Of a stretch of 64,000 nt of DNA, positions 38,490-63,344 are shown one piece after another. The notes under the pieces are model-generated. The model ran no database searches. It was not told where the DNA came from and saw only the letters and a list, made by a program, of their open reading frames with translations. The position numbers and the translations under genes are program-made. Position 1 is the first letter of the stretch. Each line of letters opens with the position of its first letter. The stretch spans positions 1,294 to 65,293 of the forward strand of contig JALOBY010000003.1 in assembly GCA_023228045.1 (NCBI GenBank), written 5' to 3'. The DNA is from Endomicrobiales bacterium. Lineage in GTDB: Bacteria > Elusimicrobiota > Endomicrobiia > Endomicrobiales > JALOBY01.

Positions 38490-39185
38490 TTATTTTTTCG
38501 CAACACTGTTTTTGATTTTATTTATTGCACGCAAAGCAAAACGCGCGGCGGATTGTTCTGCTTCTTTTTTTGAACGACCAGAACCCTTTGCCACTAAAGT
38601 TTCTTTAATATAAACGCCAACCTCAAAAATTTTTTCGTGATCACTGCCTGATTCATTTAAAACAGCGTATCGCGGTAGTGTTTGGTGGTGTGATTGTGTG
38701 TGCTCTTGGAGTTTGCTTTTTGAGTCACGCACGACAAGGCGTTTTTGCTTATTTAAAAAACCATGAATAAACTTTTTCGCTTGAGTAAAACCAGAATCAA
38801 TGTAAATTGCGGCAACAAGTGCCTCAAAGGCATCTGAGAGTATGCTATCTCTTTTTCTACCGCCATTTGCATCTTCAGCAGTGCCAAGCAATAAATAAAT
38901 TTCTAAGTTAATGGCTTTTGCCCAGCGGGTAAGACCTTGCCCTGAAACAATATACGACTTTAGTTGAGAGAGGCGACCTTCTGCTTCGTTCGGGAATTTA
39001 TTGTAAAGAAATTCTGCCACACAAGCACCAAGAATACTATCGCCAAGGAATTCAAGCCGTTCATTAAACTCATCAGAGTTATTCTCTGAGGCATAGGACT
39101 TATGTGTAAGTGATTTTTCAAGGAGCTTTTTACTTTTAAACTTATAACTTATGGTTTTTTCAAGCTTAGAGAAATTATTCAACAT
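38490..39185 (-). CDS. rnc: ribonuclease III
   Basis: 231 aa. It has the ..ERLEFLGDSIL.. signature and a C-terminal dsRBD (..GSGRSKKEAEQSAA..). Confidence 0.88.
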   Translation of the reverse strand: MLNNFSKLEKTISYKFKSKKLLEKSLTHKSYASENNSDEFNERLEFLGDSILGACVAEFLYNKFPNEAEGRLSQLKSYIVSGQGLTRWAKAINLEIYLLLGTAEDANGGRKRDSILSDAFEALVAAIYIDSGFTQAKKFIHGFLNKQKRLVVRDSKSKLQEHTQSHHQTLPRYAVLNESGSDHEKIFEVGVYIKETLVAKGSGRSKKEAEQSAARFALRAINKIKNSVAKK

Positions 39186-55464: not shown

Positions 55465-56433
55465 CTATTTTTGAATTTTTACAAGCTCGGCAAATGTCAA
55501 TTTTTCTCTTACTATTGAAGTTATTCCCATAAAGGCCACACAAAGCAGTTGAATTGCGTGCAAAGTTAAAATATATCCAAAAGCAATGTTTTTTTCAACA
55601 CCAAAAATAGCAAGTGTGCTTACCCCAACAAACTCAACTGTTCCAACATACCCGGGCGCGCTTGGCAATATAGCGGCAAAGCCAATTGCTATCATTACAA
55701 AAAGACACTGTTGATATGTTAACTGCAATGAAAATGCAGAGGCCACAGTAAAGAAAACACTTGCTTCAATTAGCCATATTATAACTGACAACAATAATGT
55801 CAAAAACAATATTTTTCTTTCGTGAAGTATTTCAAGCCCACCAGCAAAATTATTTATTAAATGAAAAAGACGATCTTTAAATTTTTGCGAAAATGGCAAA
55901 ATAGCCGGTAGTTTTAATACAAGTTCCTTGTTTTTTGAGTATGTTATAAGAAAAACGAATGCTCCAATAAAAATAATTGAGGCAGTTATAAGTGTGTTTT
56001 TTATGCCGCTTGGCAAAGCGTTTAACATCAGCATTGATAAGGCAAGTAAAAAAACATACGCCACTCCGTCAAAGATCCGTTCAATAACAATTGTAGCAAG
56101 CACACTGCTTTTTGAAACTAAAGCTTTTTTGCCTGTTATGTATGCCCTTACAATTTCACCTATTCTAAATGGCAATGTGTTGTTTGCGAAAAAACCAATT
56201 GCTAAAAATGAAAAACATCTTTTAGTAGGCAAATTTACAAGCTTAGACAAAAGCATTTTCCACCTAAAACTTCTTATAACAAAAGAGGAACAATAAAGAA
56301 CCGCACCCACAAGTAAAAGCAGCCAATTTGATGCCTTAACAAACTCAAAAGAACTCTTTAAGTCAATTTGCCTAAGTGTTAAAAAAAGCAGTACTGCACC
56401 TATAAGCAATCCTACAAAAACTTTTTTATTCAT
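55465..56433 (-). CDS. LPG_synthase_TM / flippase-like membrane protein (UPF0104 family)
   Basis: 322 aa and polytopic. It has ..LRQIDLKSSFEFVKASNWLLLLVGAVLYCSSFVIRSFRWKMLL.. and ..RIGEIVRAY.. Confidence 0.65.
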   Translation of the reverse strand: MNKKVFVGLLIGAVLLFLTLRQIDLKSSFEFVKASNWLLLLVGAVLYCSSFVIRSFRWKMLLSKLVNLPTKRCFSFLAIGFFANNTLPFRIGEIVRAYITGKKALVSKSSVLATIVIERIFDGVAYVFLLALSMLMLNALPSGIKNTLITASIIFIGAFVFLITYSKNKELVLKLPAILPFSQKFKDRLFHLINNFAGGLEILHERKILFLTLLLSVIIWLIEASVFFTVASAFSLQLTYQQCLFVMIAIGFAAILPSAPGYVGTVEFVGVSTLAIFGVEKNIAFGYILTLHAIQLLCVAFMGITSIVREKLTFAELVKIQK

Positions 56434-57334
56434 TATCCATTTCCCATAGTTGAATTATTAACGCAATTCTTGAGCCGGCATTTAAAACACTTTCCTTGTT
56501 GAATACTTGACCTACTTCGTTTATAGATGCCATAAACGGAAGCGAAAAGGCAAGCTCCCTTGTTTCTTTTGTTATAACATCGTTAAGCAATATTGAGTTT
56601 TCTCTAGACCTTTGTAATTGCATCATTGCAGTCGTTTTGGTATTCGTGCTTGCACTTTGCCAATAAGCATTTAAAGCTACACTTACGCCAATTTGCGCAC
56701 TTTGCGTTGAGATAATTACAGGTGTAAGGTTTATTGAAAGCTCAGCAGAATAATCTTTTGAATAATCACTCTTAAAACTAATTGTTGCGGTTGAACCATA
56801 GGGTGTAATGAAATTTGCAGATTCGTATATCTTTTTGGCCTCACCATTTATGTCAAGGTTGTAAAGCTTAGAGAACTCACTTTTTGTTAATAAAATAGTT
56901 TTCAAATCAGCAGTAGAGCTTATTAAACCTTGTTCGTAATTCCTGCTCATTTCAAGAATAAAAACTTTCATTTGCACAGTTTCAAGTTTTGAATCTGATA
57001 TAGCAATAAAACTTGTGATATCATTAAATTGATTGGTAAACGCACTGACCACTAAACTATTGGTATCATTGTCGCATAGTACAGTTATTGAGCTAAAAGA
57101 AAGTTTAAGTTTTTCACTAAGAACTTGCGGTACTATGTAATTAAGCGGAAAGGTTTTTGTGATTATCTCAAATTCCTTTACCCTATTTAAAGGCAAATCT
57201 GAAGTTGCTACTTTTTTTGTAATTGGAGTAATTTCTTTTGAGTTTTTTTTGTGTTTTGTTCTGTCAGCTTCCATGGAAGCTGACAGAACAAAACAAAGTG
57301 TAAAAATAAGTAAACACAAACAAATTTTTTTCAT
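56426..57334 (-). CDS. secreted protein with a minimal secretin-like architecture (N-domain plus secretin-type C-domain)
   Basis: The signal peptide is MKKICLCLLIFTLCFVLSASMEA. An N-domain-like segment is ..ITVLCDNDTNSLVVSAF.. Next comes VQMKVFILEMS.., then ..LSINLTPVII.. and ..LPFMASINEVGQVFNKE..RIALIIQ. This order parallels secretin-domain consensus blocks as I recall them. No search was run. Confidence 0.4.
   Translation of the reverse strand: MKKICLCLLIFTLCFVLSASMEADRTKHKKNSKEITPITKKVATSDLPLNRVKEFEIITKTFPLNYIVPQVLSEKLKLSFSSITVLCDNDTNSLVVSAFTNQFNDITSFIAISDSKLETVQMKVFILEMSRNYEQGLISSTADLKTILLTKSEFSKLYNLDINGEAKKIYESANFITPYGSTATISFKSDYSKDYSAELSINLTPVIISTQSAQIGVSVALNAYWQSASTNTKTTAMMQLQRSRENSILLNDVITKETRELAFSLPFMASINEVGQVFNKESVLNAGSRIALIIQLWEMDNE
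57252..57295. repeat. perfect 44-bp palindrome (22-bp arms, centre CCATGG) inside the CDS
   Basis: tgttttgttctgtcagcttcca|tggaagctgacagaacaaaaca. I checked it base by base; the first mismatch is at the 23rd pair. It spans codons 14-28 (h-region/cleavage-site part) of the secretin-like gene. Confidence 0.9.
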
Positions 57335-58603
57335 TTAGTTTGACCAATCCGGTGTTACAGAACTACCTTTTATATTGCTCAATAATCTTTTAAAAGTTCC
57401 GTCAAGCGATATTATAAACAATAAAGATTTATTTTTTACTTTTTCTGAGTACACAATAAACCTGCCGTCGGCAGACCATGATGGGTTTTCCGCATTAGTT
57501 GTACCATAAGTTAATCTATTTATATCATTACTTTTCATATCAAAAACATAAAGTTCATAATTTTTTGTTCCGCTAAGCATTGAAAAAACAATTTTATTTC
57601 CACGCGGCGACCAGCGAGGCGAATCGCAGTAGCCGTTTAAAGGCACTTTGCGAACATTTACACCATCTAAATTCATTATATAAAGCTGAGGATACCCACT
57701 CCTATCAGATATAAACGCAATCTCTTTTGCGCTTGGTGAAAAAGTAGGGCTTGTGTTGATTTTACCCTCAAAAGTTAACTGCCTTAAGAGTTTGCCCTGT
57801 AAATTGATTAAATAAAGGTTTGGACCGTGTTTGCCGTTTTGCGTTAGGGCAATGCTCTGATCATCAGGTGAAAATATGGCGGCTGTGTTTATACCCTGTT
57901 TTTTAGATATTATCACATTATTCATTGTTGCAAGTGTAAGCATGGCAATATCAGGGTTTACATCACGATAGGTTGTATATACAATTTTGCTTTTATCTGC
58001 AGACCACTTTGGCAAAATAGCAATTGAACTATCAAATGTTAGTTGTTTTAATCCATGCCCATCATAATCTATGCAGTAAAGCTCTTTAGAGCCAGTTGAA
58101 TTGTTAGCAAATACAATTTTTGTTGAAGCAACACCTCTCTCACCTACGAGTCGAAAAATAATTTCATCACTTATGTTATGGGCGCATTCTCTAAGCATTG
58201 AGGATGTAAAAACATAAGAGCTTTGCCATATTACTGTTTTGCCTAAAGTATCACTTAAACTCGCATACAAAACCTGTTTGTTTTGGATTTGAGTAATTTT
58301 GCCTGCAACTAGCAAATCAACACCTATGTTCTCCCACTCGCTAAGTTGCTCTAACTGCCCAGTGTATACTGGACCGCCGTCAATTAAGTTAAAGTACCTT
58401 GAAAGAAGTAAATCACGCCTTATTATTGAAGAGAGTTCTTTTCCTGCACCGTCTTGCGAAGTTGTGCCAATAAATTCGCTGACACCAATATCAGTTCTAC
58501 TTCCATGTGAAGTAAGTTTTAAATAAATATCGGAGCAGAAAGCATAAGAGCTGCCAAAAACTAATAATAAAACCACACAAATAACTTTAAAGCGTATTTT
58601 CAT
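57335..58603 (-). CDS. tolB: Tol-Pal system beta-propeller protein TolB
   Basis: 422 aa with a signal peptide. It has repeated ..P.WS.DG..I.. blades (PKWSADKSKIVY, SPRWSPRGNKIVF, NPSWSADGRFIVY). Confidence 0.85.
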   Translation of the reverse strand: MKIRFKVICVVLLLVFGSSYAFCSDIYLKLTSHGSRTDIGVSEFIGTTSQDGAGKELSSIIRRDLLLSRYFNLIDGGPVYTGQLEQLSEWENIGVDLLVAGKITQIQNKQVLYASLSDTLGKTVIWQSSYVFTSSMLRECAHNISDEIIFRLVGERGVASTKIVFANNSTGSKELYCIDYDGHGLKQLTFDSSIAILPKWSADKSKIVYTTYRDVNPDIAMLTLATMNNVIISKKQGINTAAIFSPDDQSIALTQNGKHGPNLYLINLQGKLLRQLTFEGKINTSPTFSPSAKEIAFISDRSGYPQLYIMNLDGVNVRKVPLNGYCDSPRWSPRGNKIVFSMLSGTKNYELYVFDMKSNDINRLTYGTTNAENPSWSADGRFIVYSEKVKNKSLLFIISLDGTFKRLLSNIKGSSVTPDWSN

Positions 58604-58606
58604 AAT

Positions 58607-59197
58607 TTACTCAATAAAAGAGAACTCAAAAAAAACACCAAGATAATTTTCATTAAAACCTTCCGGCAATGGGGCAAAAGGGTTTGCTAAAAGCACCGCG
58701 CGCAGTGCTTGCTGGTCAAATGTTTTATCATTAGAACTATTTTTGATACGCACATCGGTAATTTGCCCGTTTTTTTCTATTTTAAAATAAACAACTGCTT
58801 TATAGCGCCCGGTATTTATTGACCATTGCCAATTTGAATTGATTTTTTTTACAATGGCATTTGTATAGTAGTTGTAAGGAAAGCGGGCGTTGTCTAATGC
58901 AATTTGGTTTGATTGTTTCAGAGTGCTTGCTTGTTTCTGTTCTTTTGGTAAGTCGGGTACATTTTTTTGTTCTATTTTTTTTATTGGTTTTTTACTTTTT
59001 TGCTTTTTCAAATTAATACTGTCTTTTTCCTCTTTGACAACTTCAAGTACTGTTTGCTTAGTGTCTTGCGCATAATAAACAAGCTCAAATGGAACGGTTA
59101 TGTTGATAGTTTTATTTTGGCCGATGGAAAGAAAAGCAATCAGCCCAATATGCAACAGCAGAGAGATAAAAAAAGTGAACTCAAGGTTTTTGAGCAT
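58607..59197 (-). CDS. TonB/TolA-family energy-transducer-like protein
   Basis: 196 aa. It has an N-terminal TM segment (FTFFISLLLHIGLIAFL), a Lys/Glu/Pro-containing linker and a C-terminal TonB_C/TolA-like fold (..VVYFKIEKNGQITDVRI..SSNDKTFDQQALRAV..PLP..). Confidence 0.6.
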   Translation of the reverse strand: MLKNLEFTFFISLLLHIGLIAFLSIGQNKTINITVPFELVYYAQDTKQTVLEVVKEEKDSINLKKQKSKKPIKKIEQKNVPDLPKEQKQASTLKQSNQIALDNARFPYNYYTNAIVKKINSNWQWSINTGRYKAVVYFKIEKNGQITDVRIKNSSNDKTFDQQALRAVLLANPFAPLPEGFNENYLGVFFEFSFIE

Positions 59198-59897
59198 CTT
59201 GGCCCTTTGTTTGGACCTTTTGGGCGGACATTTTTGCTTCTTGTGAATCTGGGAACTCAGAGTACAATTGTTTTAGAAGTGTTTTTGTTTTTTCACCGTT
59301 GCCAATTTTTTCATAGCAGTCCGCGAGTTTATATAGCACAGACGGACTTAACTCCATGTTCGTTTTGTTATTTAAAAAAAGCTCAAACTTAGTTATAGCG
59401 TCATCAAAAGATTTTTTTGAGTAGTAGGAATCGGCCAAATAGTAGTTTGCCTTATCTGAAAGTTCTGTATCAGGGTATTTTTCAAGATATGTTTCAAACC
59501 CTGTTATAGCGAGGTCATATTTGCCGTTTGAATAATCATTGTAAGCCAGATTGTAAAGCGCAGATGGGCTTGGAGCTATTGAAAGCGTAGTGCCAGAAAG
59601 CTGCTCAAAAAGTTTATCTAGCCGTTGAGAAAAGTTCGCATCTACATCATCAAGTTTTTGCCCAAGAGAAGACATTCTATTTTGTGTTTCTTTTAGGTTG
59701 GAACCGAGTATATCTAACTTTCTTGAAAAACTCTCAGTTTTATTAGAAACATCTGCCTGATTTGTTTGAAGTTCATTTATTTTAAGTTGTAGTTTATAGA
59801 TATCTTCTCGCAAACCTGAAACCTCCGTACTGGTTGCGATACAGCCAGACAATAAAAATAAAAAAATAAATGTTAAACCAAAGATATAGCGAATCAT
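59181..59897 (-). CDS. cpoB: CpoB/YbgF-like TPR protein, predicted lipoprotein
   Basis: 238 aa. It has the lipobox ..FLLSGC, an N-terminal coiled coil (..LQLKINELQTNQ..) and C-terminal TPRs (..YNLAYNDYSNGKYDLAITGFETYLEKYP..). Confidence 0.7.
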   Translation of the reverse strand: MIRYIFGLTFIFLFLLSGCIATSTEVSGLREDIYKLQLKINELQTNQADVSNKTESFSRKLDILGSNLKETQNRMSSLGQKLDDVDANFSQRLDKLFEQLSGTTLSIAPSPSALYNLAYNDYSNGKYDLAITGFETYLEKYPDTELSDKANYYLADSYYSKKSFDDAITKFELFLNNKTNMELSPSVLYKLADCYEKIGNGEKTKTLLKQLYSEFPDSQEAKMSAQKVQTKGQDAQKP

Positions 59898-60394
59898 TTT
59901 CCTCTTACTTTTGTTTCAGCTCGTCTATTTTTCGCATATGCATTTTCATTATCAGAATCATCTAACAAATTTTCTTTACCATACGAAATTGTGCCTATAT
60001 TACCTGCTGGAACTCCAAGAGATATATAATAATCACGAACAGCCGAGGCCCGTTTTTGACCAAGTGCAAGGTTGTACTCAATAGTACCGCGTTGATCGCA
60101 GTATCCTTCAACTATTATGTTAGCGATTGAATACTCTTTTAAATAACTCGCATTCTTTTTTAATACATCGCTCGCGCTGTCACTCAAGTCGTAAGAGTCA
60201 TAGTCAAAACTTATGTTTACAAGTCCTTCAATCGATTTCCAATCTTTGAAACGAACTGACGCCTCATCCGAATCTTTGTTAGTGTCGCTAACTTGCGGCA
60301 CAATCGTCTCAGTTGGTTTAATTATTTGTTTTTTTGCGCAACCGGCATTAAAAATTAAAGTAACTGCGAGTAAAACAAGGAATATTTTTGACAT
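59894..60394 (-). CDS. pal: peptidoglycan-associated lipoprotein
   Basis: 166 aa. It has the lipobox ..FNAGC and the OmpA-like domain ..FDYDSYDL..VEGYCDQRGTIEYNLALGQKRA.. Confidence 0.85.
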   Translation of the reverse strand: MSKIFLVLLAVTLIFNAGCAKKQIIKPTETIVPQVSDTNKDSDEASVRFKDWKSIEGLVNISFDYDSYDLSDSASDVLKKNASYLKEYSIANIIVEGYCDQRGTIEYNLALGQKRASAVRDYYISLGVPAGNIGTISYGKENLLDDSDNENAYAKNRRAETKVRGK

Positions 60395-60536: not shown

Positions 60537-63344
60537 TTATGCTTTTAAAGCTGATTGTAAATATTGGCCGGTAAATGAGTTTTTGTTTAAAGAAACCGTT
60601 TCAGGGGTTCCTTTAGCCACAATATAACCACCCTTATTACCACCTTCTGGGCCCAAGTCAATAATCCAATCGGCGGTTTTTATTACTTCAAGATTGTGTT
60701 CAATGACTAAAACCGTGTTGCCATTATCTACTAACTCATGCAAAACTTTTAACAACTTTTCTACATCGGCAAAGTGCAGGCCTGTTGTCGGCTCATCAAG
60801 TATATAAAGGGTTTTGCCTGTGGAGTGCTTTGATAATTCATTTGCCAGTTTCACTCTTTGAGCTTCGCCTCCCGACAGTGTGGTTGCAGCTTGTCCAAGC
60901 TTTATATAATTTAGCCCAACAGAATTTAATGTTCCAAAAATTTTCTTTATTTTAGGAATGTTTGTAAAAAACTCATAGCCCTCCTCAACTGTCATATCCA
61001 AAACTTCCGCTATTGTTTTGCCTTTATAATGAACCTGCAAAGTTTCACTATTAAAGCGTTTACCCCCGCAAACTTCACAAGTTACATAAACATCAGGCAA
61101 AAACTGCATTTCAATTTTAATTGTTCCATCTCCATGGCAATTTTCGCAACGGCCGCCTTTTACATTAAAAGAGAACCTTCCTGGCTCATAACCCCTGGCT
61201 TTTGATTCCTGGGTGCTGGCAAAAAGGTCACGAATATGCGTAAATGCACCCGTGTAAGTGCTTGGATTTGAACGAGGAGTTCTACCAATGGGCGATTGGT
61301 CAACAATTATCACTTTATCTATATTTTCCATGCCATTAATTTCTTTTACTATACCAGGTACTTCTTTTGAACCGTAAAGTTTTTTTGCAAGATTTTTGTA
61401 TATTATTTCATGTACTAAAGTTGATTTTCCAGAACCGGAAACACCTGTTACGCAAACGAAAACCCCAAGAGGCATATTTAAGGATAGTTTTTTAAGGTTA
61501 AACTGTGAAGCGCCAATAATTTCAAGATTTCTGTCTGTTAACTTTCTTCTCTTTTTAGGTATAGGAATTCTTAGGGTACCGTTTAGGTAACTCGCGGTAA
61601 GTGAATTTTTCGCTTTTAAAACTTTTTCATAAGTACCTTGGGCAACAATAGAACCGCCATGAATGCCGGCACCCGGCCCAAGATCTATTATCCAGTCGGC
61701 TGCGCGCATAGTTTCTTCATCGTGCTCAATAACAATTAGGGTATTGCCCATGTCGCGCAGGCGAAGCATTGTATCTAAAAGCTTTCTATTGTCTTTTTGG
61801 TGCAGGCCAATTGATGGTTCATCAAGCACATAAAGCACTCCTGTTAACCCTGAACCAATTTGTGTTGCAAGGTGAATTCTTTGTGCCTCACCTCCGGAAA
61901 GTGTTGAGCTTTCACGGTCAATGGTAATATATCCGAGCCCCACATCGCTTAAAAATGAAAGCCGCCGGTTTACCTCTTTAAATATTGTTTTACTGATAAA
62001 TTTATCTTTTTCTGATAGTTTTAGCGCGGCAAAGAATTCCCTTGCAATATTGACAGACATAGTTGTTAATTCTGAAATTGATTTGCCATCAATTTTCACT
62101 GACATGGCAGATTTTTTAAGGCGAGCGCCGTGGCAGCTATTACAGATAACAGTGCGCATATAGTTTGTACGGATCTCTTCACGCACGAATTCAGATTCAG
62201 TTTCAGTGTAACGCCGTTTTAAATTGACGATCACACCCTCAAATCCATCATTGTCGCCGAATAGCAATATCTCCTGCTGTTTTCTTGAAAGTTTTAACCA
62301 TGAAGTTTTTGTTGGTATATTGTGTTTTGAGCAAACATCATCTAAAAGTTGCTGGTAATAGCCACTCCATGAATTTTTCCAACGATGGGTACGGGTTGTT
62401 ATTGGCTGGCTCCATGGTTTTATTGCGCCATCTGCTATGCTAAGCATTGGAGCACGAATTATAAGATCTTCATCAACTTCTTCTTTTGCGCCAAGCCCGC
62501 CGCACTCCGGACAAGCCCCAAATGGCGAGTTAAACGAAAATAGTCGTGGCTCAATTTCAGGCAGGCTTATGCCACAATCGGTGCAGCTGTTATGTTCGCT
62601 AAACAATCTTTCTTTTACTGACCTTTTTGAGCTCTCATCTAAAATTAAAACTAAGCCGGACGATTCTTTAAGTGCAAGTTCAACCGCTTCCGAAATTCTT
62701 TGGCGTGCTTGTGCAGTTAGCACAACTCTATCTATAATAACTTCAATGGTGTGTTTTTTGTAACGGTCAAGCTTTATTTTTTCATCTAATAAGGAAATCT
62801 TACCGTTTATGCGAACCCTGGCAAAGCCGCTTTTTGCAAGTTTCTTAAACAACTCCTCATAAGTTCCAGTTTTCCCGCGCACAATAGGTGAGAGTATTTG
62901 AAGTTTTGTGCCTTCCTGCATTTTCATTATTTCATCTATAATTTGCTGAGCGCTTTGCGAAGAAATTGGTTTGTTGCACTCAGGACAAAATGGTTTACCA
63001 ATACGTGCAAATAATAACCGCAAATAATCATAAATTTCCGTTACTGTGCCTACTGTTGAGCGTGGGTTATGTGACGGATTTTTTTGTTCAATTGCAATTG
63101 CCGGAGAAAGGCCTTCAATTGTGTCTAAGTCGGGTTTTTCCATCAACTCAAGAAATTGTCTTGCATATGCCGATAGCGACTCAACATAGCGCCGCTGGCC
63201 TTCAGCATAGATAGTGTCAAATGCCAATGACGATTTACCTGAACCCGAGAGCCCTGTTACTACAACAAGTTTGTTTTTTGGTATTTCAAGTGAAATGTTT
63301 TTTAAGTTGTGCGCTCTTGCGCCTTTTATGATTATTTTATCCAT
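60537..63344 (-). CDS. uvrA: excinuclease ABC subunit A
   Basis: 935 aa. It has two ABC modules ([12 protein letters not shown].., [11 protein letters not shown]..), LSGGE signature motifs and zinc-finger Cys pairs. Confidence 0.92.

Follow-up and report, generated by a model that had tools for sequence, protein, structure and literature searches.

The perfecting of an imperfect inverted repeat is described by the quasi-palindrome correction model, which was reportedly set out by Ripley in 1982. Quasi-palindrome hotspots are located in the thyA and lacZ genes of E. coli (PMC7202029), and multinucleotide clusters are a signature of mutations caused by template switching (PMC8794818, PMC7202029). 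Template switching produces a perfect stem in a single event, with compensatory changes that seem to be simultaneous, and it both creates and maintains RNA hairpins (PMC8794818). It has been proposed as the cause of the excess and conservation of perfect inverted repeats in Proteobacteria (PMC5941160), causes multi-residue replacements and parallel changes in the coding DNA of yeast (PMC8604942), and has been reported to perfect repeats in parallel (PMC8604942, PMC5941160). In this study, a perfect 44-bp palindrome is analysed, which is located at 57252-57295 of a 64 kb stretch of DNA from an Endomicrobiales bacterium (contig JALOBY010000003.1; the whole stretch is hereafter termed the window). 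It lies in the signal-peptide coding region of a weakly secretin-like gene that directly follows tolB. Comparison with related lineages suggests that this palindrome is young and lineage-specific and was made and homogenised by template switching (quasi-palindrome correction), with an mRNA hairpin as a tolerated by-product. We favour this account, at a probability a little better than even.

The palindrome consists of two arms (57252-57273 and 57274-57295) of 22 nt each, which are 100% complementary to each other, are separated by a spacer of 0 nt and meet at the centre CCATGG, as determined both by reading the sequence and with a repeat finder. In gene orientation it reads TGTTTTGTTCTGTCAGCTTCCA followed by TGGAAGCTGACAGAACAAAACA. 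The symmetry ends at 22 pairs, pair 23 (g57251 versus a57296) being a mismatch. The palindrome starts at nt +40 (codon 14) of a minus-strand open reading frame (ORF) and covers codons 14-28 with the reading frame intact; the in-frame peptide encoded by it is CFVLSASMEADRTKH. A sequence-only reading of this DNA had claimed a perfect 44-bp palindrome with a CCATGG centre and its first mismatch at pair 23, placed in frame within the signal-peptide region of the gene following tolB, and had judged its length unlikely to arise by chance. All of these claims hold. The other zero-spacer palindromes in the window have arms of 8 nt at most, the arm length never exceeds 13 nt in 200 shuffles of the window, and the arm sequence has no second copy in the window when up to three mismatches are allowed. 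A chance origin is ruled out by these three results. Given the peptide and the codon usage of the window, the probability of this exact encoding is ~3e-7. The palindrome contains the rare codons CTG (5%), TCC (9%) and GAC (29%, all by window codon usage), and rare codons are expected when the bases of one arm are dictated by the other arm. It is flanked by a 13-nt, 92% complementary inverted repeat (57244-57256 / 57312-57324), in which the T-rich codons 4-8 are opposed to the A-rich run just after the palindrome and which reflects the same complementarity of T-rich and A-rich codons as the palindrome itself. A larger enclosing structure is rejected, because this 13-nt repeat is not used in the predicted minimum-energy folds of 150 nt.

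The gene family to which the host gene belongs is very rare. A search of ~5.8 billion proteins yields five lineages including that of the window (loci: window 56426-57334, L002, L006, L011 and L095), one of which, a distant one, was added by a profile search. No family members are found in 185,579 species-representative genomes, and a metagenome scan gives no relatives beyond the contigs already found. The closest lineage (P0001, the sister lineage) is 93% identical in protein and, over 6.9 kb, 94.9% identical in DNA. The next lineage (P0002), known from five assemblies, shows 84% protein and 89% DNA identity. P0003 and P0004, each represented by a single short contig, show 49% and 47% protein identity respectively. 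The orthologues are 300-302 aa long, and both arms align to homologous codons. All the available sequences are short-read assemblies, and short-read metagenome assemblies can produce inverted junctions. A fold-back chimera or a k-mer graph error might thus imitate a palindrome. However, the same host protein is encoded on two to three other long contigs, of which L001 is identical to the window over 6.9 kb, and a palindrome-preserving variant is assembled identically from four P0001 samples by two pipelines (JGI, ENA). In addition, neither the reading frame nor the protein alignment breaks at the palindrome along the 302 codons, the arms are only 22 nt long, and their flanks are mutually unrelated. 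An artefact is therefore effectively refuted, and we give it almost no probability. The identical contigs and the independently assembled variant in the sister lineage bear out the earlier argument that the palindrome is not a fold-back assembly chimera.

In gene orientation, the region reads TGTTTTGTTCTGTCAGCTTCCATGGAAGCTGACAGAACAAAACA in the window, TGTTTTGTTTTGTCAGCTTCCATGGAAGCTGACAAAACAAAACA in P0001, and TGTTTTGCTCTGTTAGTTTCTATAGAAGC and AAAAACAAAACA, separated by a gap of 3 nt, in P0002. The P0001 region is a perfect 44-bp palindrome of its own. It differs from that of the window at only two of the 44 bp, which are located at the mirror positions 10 and 35 and replace C-G by T-A. The change at position 10 is synonymous (Leu, CTG to TTG), and the change at position 35 replaces Arg (AGA) by Lys (AAA). 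This compensatory pair is observed directly, as are the palindrome and its distribution among the lineages. Neutral evolution was simulated with the spectrum of the 261 transitions and 75 transversions that separate P0001 from the window (4.9% divergence). The palindrome is broken in 90% of the outcomes, unchanged in 9.8%, and changed yet perfect in 0.48% (P = 0.0048). This result suggests that some process keeps the two arms complementary. In P0002, 13 of the 22 mirrored pairs are left and the 3-nt gap interrupts the region, which is thus a degraded quasi-palindrome. In P0003 and P0004, the palindrome is absent at the orthologous site. The perfect palindrome is therefore confined, among the five lineages, to those at least 95% identical. 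The sequence-only reading had proposed comparing orthologues for conservation of the palindrome beyond what the protein requires. As judged from the aligned sequences, the palindrome is so maintained in the two closest lineages, where it stays perfect through a compensatory double change, but the 89%-identical lineage has it only in degraded form and the more distant ones not at all, such that it is confined to these two. This distribution is expected from template switching, a mutational route that the sequence-only reading did not contain.

The polarity of the changes was inferred by parsimony from a codon alignment, with P0003 and P0004 as distant outgroups. By this comparison, the 5' arm appears to be the more ancestral of the two arms: at positions 8, 14 and 17, the window seems to have kept the ancestral base, and P0002 looks derived. 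Derived states are, in contrast, probable for the 3' arm in both the window and P0001 (GCA to GCT and AAA to GAC), with three substitutions within 4 nt. The codon GCA is present in P0002 and P0003, and ACA in P0004; taken together, GCA (AAA) AAA becomes GCT GAC AGA. The clustering and the direction of these changes are observed: each of the three substitutions yields a Watson-Crick pair with the 5' arm, such that all the clustered changes held by the 3' arm (GCA AAA to GCT GAC) perfect the pairing. The 3-nt gap of P0002 is most simply explained as a slippage deletion in the A run. At pair 10/35, C10 is present in the window and P0002, and A35 in P0001, P0002, P0003 and P0004. This distribution suggests a C x A mismatch in the common ancestor of P0001 and the window, and its resolution to C-G in one lineage and to T-A in the other, so that one ancestral mismatch was probably fixed in two different ways. 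The inferred one-mismatch ancestor folds at -25.6 kcal/mol and a hypothetical deeper ancestor at -13.2 kcal/mol (z -1.9). The apex also varies in a mirrored fashion, positions 21/24 being C..G in the window and P0001 and T..A in P0002. The window and P0002 differ at 8 of 44 nt in the palindrome versus 13 of 180 nt in the flank (Fisher p = 0.04), and this excess is consistent with extra templated changes.

We infer the following mechanism from these observations. The T-rich codons of the signal-peptide core (TGT TTT GTT ...) and the A-rich Lys/Thr codons of the linker (... ACA AAA CA) would have formed the starting imperfect inverted repeat, with a short palindromic core (GCTTCTATAGAAGC-like) at its centre. 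During replication, the nascent strand would occasionally copy one arm with the other arm as a template, and each such switch would turn mismatches into perfect pairs. The repeat would have been perfected in the ancestor of the two sister lineages, and its arms would have been kept identical since then, a point change in one arm being either reverted or copied to the other. As a consequence, seven N-terminal residues of the mature protein would be dictated by the reverse complement of the signal-peptide codons, and the mRNA would form from nt +40 a hairpin of 20 bp and -32 kcal/mol, which the ribosome would have to unwind. The cell would tolerate this hairpin, perhaps at the cost of somewhat lower expression, and need not require it. 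Template switching is favoured for several reasons. The palindrome is perfect in two lineages, retains 13 of 22 pairs in P0002 and is absent in P0003 and P0004, although the operon junction is shared by all of them. The derived changes fall within 4 nt of a single arm, and each of them makes a pair. The pairing is strictly Watson-Crick, without G·U, and the symmetry runs through the apex CATG, which is unable to pair in a hairpin. Finally, template switching is intrinsically biased towards perfection, and both sister lineages became perfect.

The RNA of the window is predicted to form a 20-bp stem with a 4-nt CAUG loop at -32 kcal/mol (z -7.4), in accordance with the hairpin of about 20 bp that had been predicted from the sequence. 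This stem would be a continuous double-stranded RNA of about two helical turns, contains no G·U among its 20 pairs, and dominates the 150-nt folds as well. The P0001 RNA folds at -29.3 kcal/mol (z -7.0). In P0002, the RNA fold is -12.8 kcal/mol (z -0.86), like that of shuffled sequences, and the fold of single-stranded DNA (ssDNA) behaves likewise. No match to Rfam is found in the whole window with covariance models at the gathering threshold, and the palindrome is not reported by a terminator and promoter scan of 56400-58700. Rho-independent terminators resemble the palindrome in having a G+C-containing stem-loop, but differ from it in having a U tract after the stem. An intrinsic terminator is rejected, because the stem is not followed by a U/T tract on either strand (CACAAAAAAAAC follows on the mRNA strand and AAGTGTAAAAAT on the other). 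A programmed -1 frameshift is rejected as well: by inspection, the upstream codons CTT ATT TTT ACA CTT contain no in-frame canonical X XXY YYZ heptamer of the kind that would lie 5-9 nt upstream of the structure. The 0 frame is conserved across all 302 codons.

The main rival account, which we regard as unlikely though deserving of weight, is that the hairpin is a lineage-specific mRNA element under selection. Spanning nt +40 to +83 of a gene whose translation would be coupled to that of tolB, it would act as an RNase III site, or as a barrier to 3'-exonucleases or an attenuator of translation. The secretin-like gene and the envelope genes downstream of it (LPG-synthase-TM-like and glycosyltransferase genes) would in this way be expressed at a lower level than the upstream pal-cpoB-tolA-tolB. 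Such an element would sit inside the coding sequence because the stop codon of tolB abuts the next ATG and leaves no intergenic space; this TAAATG junction is conserved in all five lineages. The hairpin is predicted to be very stable in both palindromic lineages, and the change from C-G to U-A, which may have passed through a U·G intermediate, is improbable under neutrality (P ~0.005). The stem starts just outside the initiation-sensitive window that ends at ~+37, such that the gene would still be translatable, and it is located where a block of genes that plausibly need lower expression begins. RNase III substrates have stems of ~20 bp, and the hairpin falls into this size class. The window contains rnc, the RNase III gene (38490-39185, minus strand, with the signature ERLEFLGD). 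The presence of this gene, to which the sequence-only reading had pointed, is thus confirmed, but it says nothing specific about the palindrome, because RNase III is, to our knowledge, near-universal.

One stem pair covaries between the two palindromic lineages. On the other hand, neither the 89%-identical lineage (z -0.86) nor the two distant orthologues share the structure, although all three have the same operon junction. The absence of G·U pairs, the extension of the symmetry into the unpaired apex and the clustering of the derived changes in one arm also argue against selection on the hairpin. The one-mismatch ancestor was already at -25.6 kcal/mol, and selection on RNA stability would therefore gain little from the last pair. 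Furthermore, nothing comparable is present at the other operon junctions in the 64 kb, and the hairpin has neither an Rfam match nor a terminator or promoter signature. A combination of the two processes is conceivable, though we consider it rather doubtful: a hairpin born by template switching might now be a selected RNase III site or decay barrier, which uncouples the mini-secretin-like gene and the envelope-biogenesis genes from Tol-Pal. If this were true, a replication error would have been caught in the act of creating a new post-transcriptional control point.

Perfect Watson-Crick symmetry through the centre is also what is expected for the recognition of double-stranded DNA, ssDNA of the palindrome is predicted to form a hairpin of -22 kcal/mol on either strand, and the mirrored changes preserve the dyad. 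The palindrome could accordingly be a DNA-level site, such as a dyad for a dimeric protein, a target of a recombinase or resolvase, or a cruciform element. This is improbable, in that the window has the palindrome only once, searches of viral contigs, plasmids and phages give no match, and operators are typically much shorter than 44 bp. The surrounding chromosomal operon is conserved, no recombinase, integrase or mobile-element boundary is present at the site, the orthologues differ in length by 3 nt at most, and the sequence of the palindrome changes between the sister lineages and is lost in the next one. Some of these results bear equally on a small mobile palindromic element of the miniature inverted-repeat transposable element (MITE), repetitive extragenic palindromic (REP) or Rickettsia palindromic element (RPE) type. 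Palindromic elements inserted in frame into genes exist in some bacteria, the RPEs of Rickettsia being an example. However, it is not an insertion relative to the colinear orthologues of 300-302 aa, and its single copy and the lack of matches in viral contigs, plasmids and phages make an in-frame insertion of this kind scarcely credible.

Several points weigh against template switching as the explanation. Both template switching and selection on the hairpin predict compensatory changes, and therefore neither the mirrored change nor the parallel fixing separates them. The polarity was set with outgroups of 47-49% identity, which align poorly in this region. It is about equally parsimonious that the perfect palindrome was ancestral to the three close lineages and decayed in P0002. 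The mirrored apex change, taken alone, could be a coincidence (p ~0.3 by a rough estimate). Statistical power is low because there are only five lineages, and template switching is not visibly frequent in this genome, because the window contains no other example. Finally, a mutational origin is compatible with a later recruitment of the hairpin for a function, which may have happened here.

The positions of the palindrome, of its parts and of the neighbouring genes are summarised in Table 1. The host ORF comes fifth in a compact operon on the minus strand, in which the genes of 55465-60394 overlap or abut each other. The order of the Tol-Pal genes in it is unusual: a pal-like gene, a cpoB-like gene, a tolA/TonB_C-like gene and tolB are followed by the mini-secretin-like gene, the LPG_synthase_TM-family gene and the glycosyltransferase genes. 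The N-terminus of the host protein looks, by inspection, like a Sec signal peptide, with MKK, a hydrophobic stretch, and SAS followed by ME. If so, the signal peptide ends in one arm and the Lys-rich linker begins in the other. The invariant Cys14 is not a lipoprotein signal, because the residues at -3 to -1 are FTL (FFF in P0003) and, by inspection, do not form a lipobox. An internal start at the apex AUG (Met21) is rejected as well, because the 5' arm contains no Shine-Dalgarno sequence and the codon is ATA in P0002.

Table 1. Features of the palindrome and its host operon in the window (gene positions are given in gene orientation).
Feature	Position	Strand	Remarks
Perfect 44-bp palindrome	57252..57295	none	Spans ORF codons 14-28
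5' arm in gene orientation, TGTTTTGTTCTGTCAGCTTCCA	57274..57295	minus	Encodes CFVLSAS: last part of the hydrophobic core plus c-region (predicted signal peptide)
3' arm in gene orientation, TGGAAGCTGACAGAACAAAACA	57252..57273	minus	Encodes (M)EADRTKH, with which the Lys-rich linker of the mature protein begins
Member of the covarying pair, gene position 35	57261		G in the window, A in the sister (P0001) lineage; partner 57286
Member of the covarying pair, gene position 10	57286		C in the window, T in the sister lineage; codon CTG (Leu) to TTG (Leu)
Apex CATG	57272..57275		4-nt loop of the RNA or ssDNA hairpin; outer positions vary in mirror fashion between lineages
Host gene	56426..57334	minus	302-aa secreted protein, weakly secretin-like
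tolB	57335..58603	minus	Stop codon (TAA) and host-gene ATG are contiguous (TAAATG)
OmpA/Pal-like gene	59894-60394	minus	
TPR/CpoB-like gene	59181-59897	minus	
TonB_C/TolA-like gene	58607-59197	minus	
LPG_synthase_TM-family gene	55465-56433	minus	
Two glycosyltransferase genes		minus	After the LPG_synthase_TM-family gene in the same operon

The host protein has no Pfam match at E <=0.01. Its match to Secretin_N scores 15.4 bits versus a cut-off of 28.2, with a best E of 1e-3 among four members; all four family members tested match Secretin_N weakly, and the model of the Secretin C-domain does not match the host protein. A profile search against the PDB finds PilQ of Deinococcus (8co1) at E 4e-4, in an alignment that includes a C-terminal PF..S...VG..F motif, and the C-terminal motif of the host protein, PFM..INEVGQ.F, resembles the end of secretin domains. 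The host protein thus resembles a minimal secretin with one weak Secretin_N-like domain, a resemblance that stays below the Pfam thresholds. Of the label "secretin-like" given to this gene in the sequence-only reading, a weak resemblance to Secretin_N and PilQ stands, but a family assignment by the Pfam cut-off does not. An AlphaFold (AF2) model of the protein, with a predicted local distance difference test (pLDDT) score of 43, was unusable and was not used. Elsewhere in the window, which has a G+C content of 35.7%, uvrA is located at 60537-63344 on the minus strand. Its best match among the GTDB species representatives shows 58% identity, and the top UvrA matches are scattered over phyla (Chloroflexota, Patescibacteria, Actinomycetota, Leptospiraceae and others), with no close relative in that collection, which makes UvrA uninformative on taxonomy.

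To calibrate how frequent such palindromes are, 1.41 Mb of unrelated bacterial loci, which had been fetched for another purpose, were searched. Perfect palindromes whose arms reach 19 nt or more and whose spacer does not exceed 1 nt occur four times in them, once inside a UvrC-like ORF. This corresponds to roughly 1-3 per Mb, which indicates that such objects are uncommon but not extraordinary. The one in the UvrC-like ORF (433 aa) is a perfect 19+1+19 palindrome (TTGGAAACCTGGTTTCCAA A TTGGAAACCAGGTTTCCAA) at 14153-14191 of L082, from an unrelated metagenome-assembled genome (MAG). Two Anaerolineae MAGs have perfect palindromes with a shared GACCTC/GAGGTC-type centre (23+1+23 at 14722-14768 of L076, and 18+1+18 at 9341-9377 of L058). 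In both cases, a MiaB-like gene and a secreted-protein gene converge on the palindrome, which is probably a bidirectional terminator. A 24+24 zero-spacer perfect palindrome lies ~0.8 kb upstream of uvrA in a Saccharibacteria MAG (L079, 9183-9230), and a 20+20 palindrome of GAAC-N4-GTTC units, which are SOS-box-like, lies near uvrA in a Chloroflexota MAG (L034, 6960-6999).

The locus analysed here provides a natural and clear-cut case of a long perfect palindrome in a coding region of an uncultured bacterial lineage, and the birth of this palindrome, its upkeep by mirrored changes and its decay may be read from three close lineages. If template switching is the cause, it can rewrite several adjacent residues, such that the mature N-terminus of a protein mirrors its own signal-peptide codons. 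It can also look like compensatory evolution, which usually counts as proof that an RNA structure is functional, and this calls for caution in the discovery of RNAs by covariation. If the hairpin is functional, the locus shows how a mutational accident becomes a control element; otherwise, the biological consequence is limited.

Operon mRNA hairpins, such as RNase III sites and decay barriers of the REP or puf type, resemble the predicted hairpin in being stable stems of ~20 bp at the boundary of gene blocks in a polycistronic transcript. Known operon-tuning hairpins, however, mostly lie between genes, have bulges and G·U pairs rather than perfect stems, and are conserved across orthologues, whereas the hairpin described here lies inside codons 14-28, is perfectly Watson-Crick including its apex, and is present only in lineages at least 95% identical. 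Compared with the palindromes in template-switch surveys, 22+22 nt with a spacer of zero is at the long end, the E. coli survey having covered arms of less than 20 bp, and the palindrome differs from them also in its location in a signal-peptide coding region, in its uncultured host lineage and in a mechanism that is derived from five sequences. The known cases of quasi-palindrome correction share with this locus the perfecting of an imperfect repeat through clustered changes that increase pairing, the homogenisation of the arms with seemingly simultaneous compensation, the parallel events and the nonsynonymous effects within a gene. As an event, it is a new instance of an already known kind.

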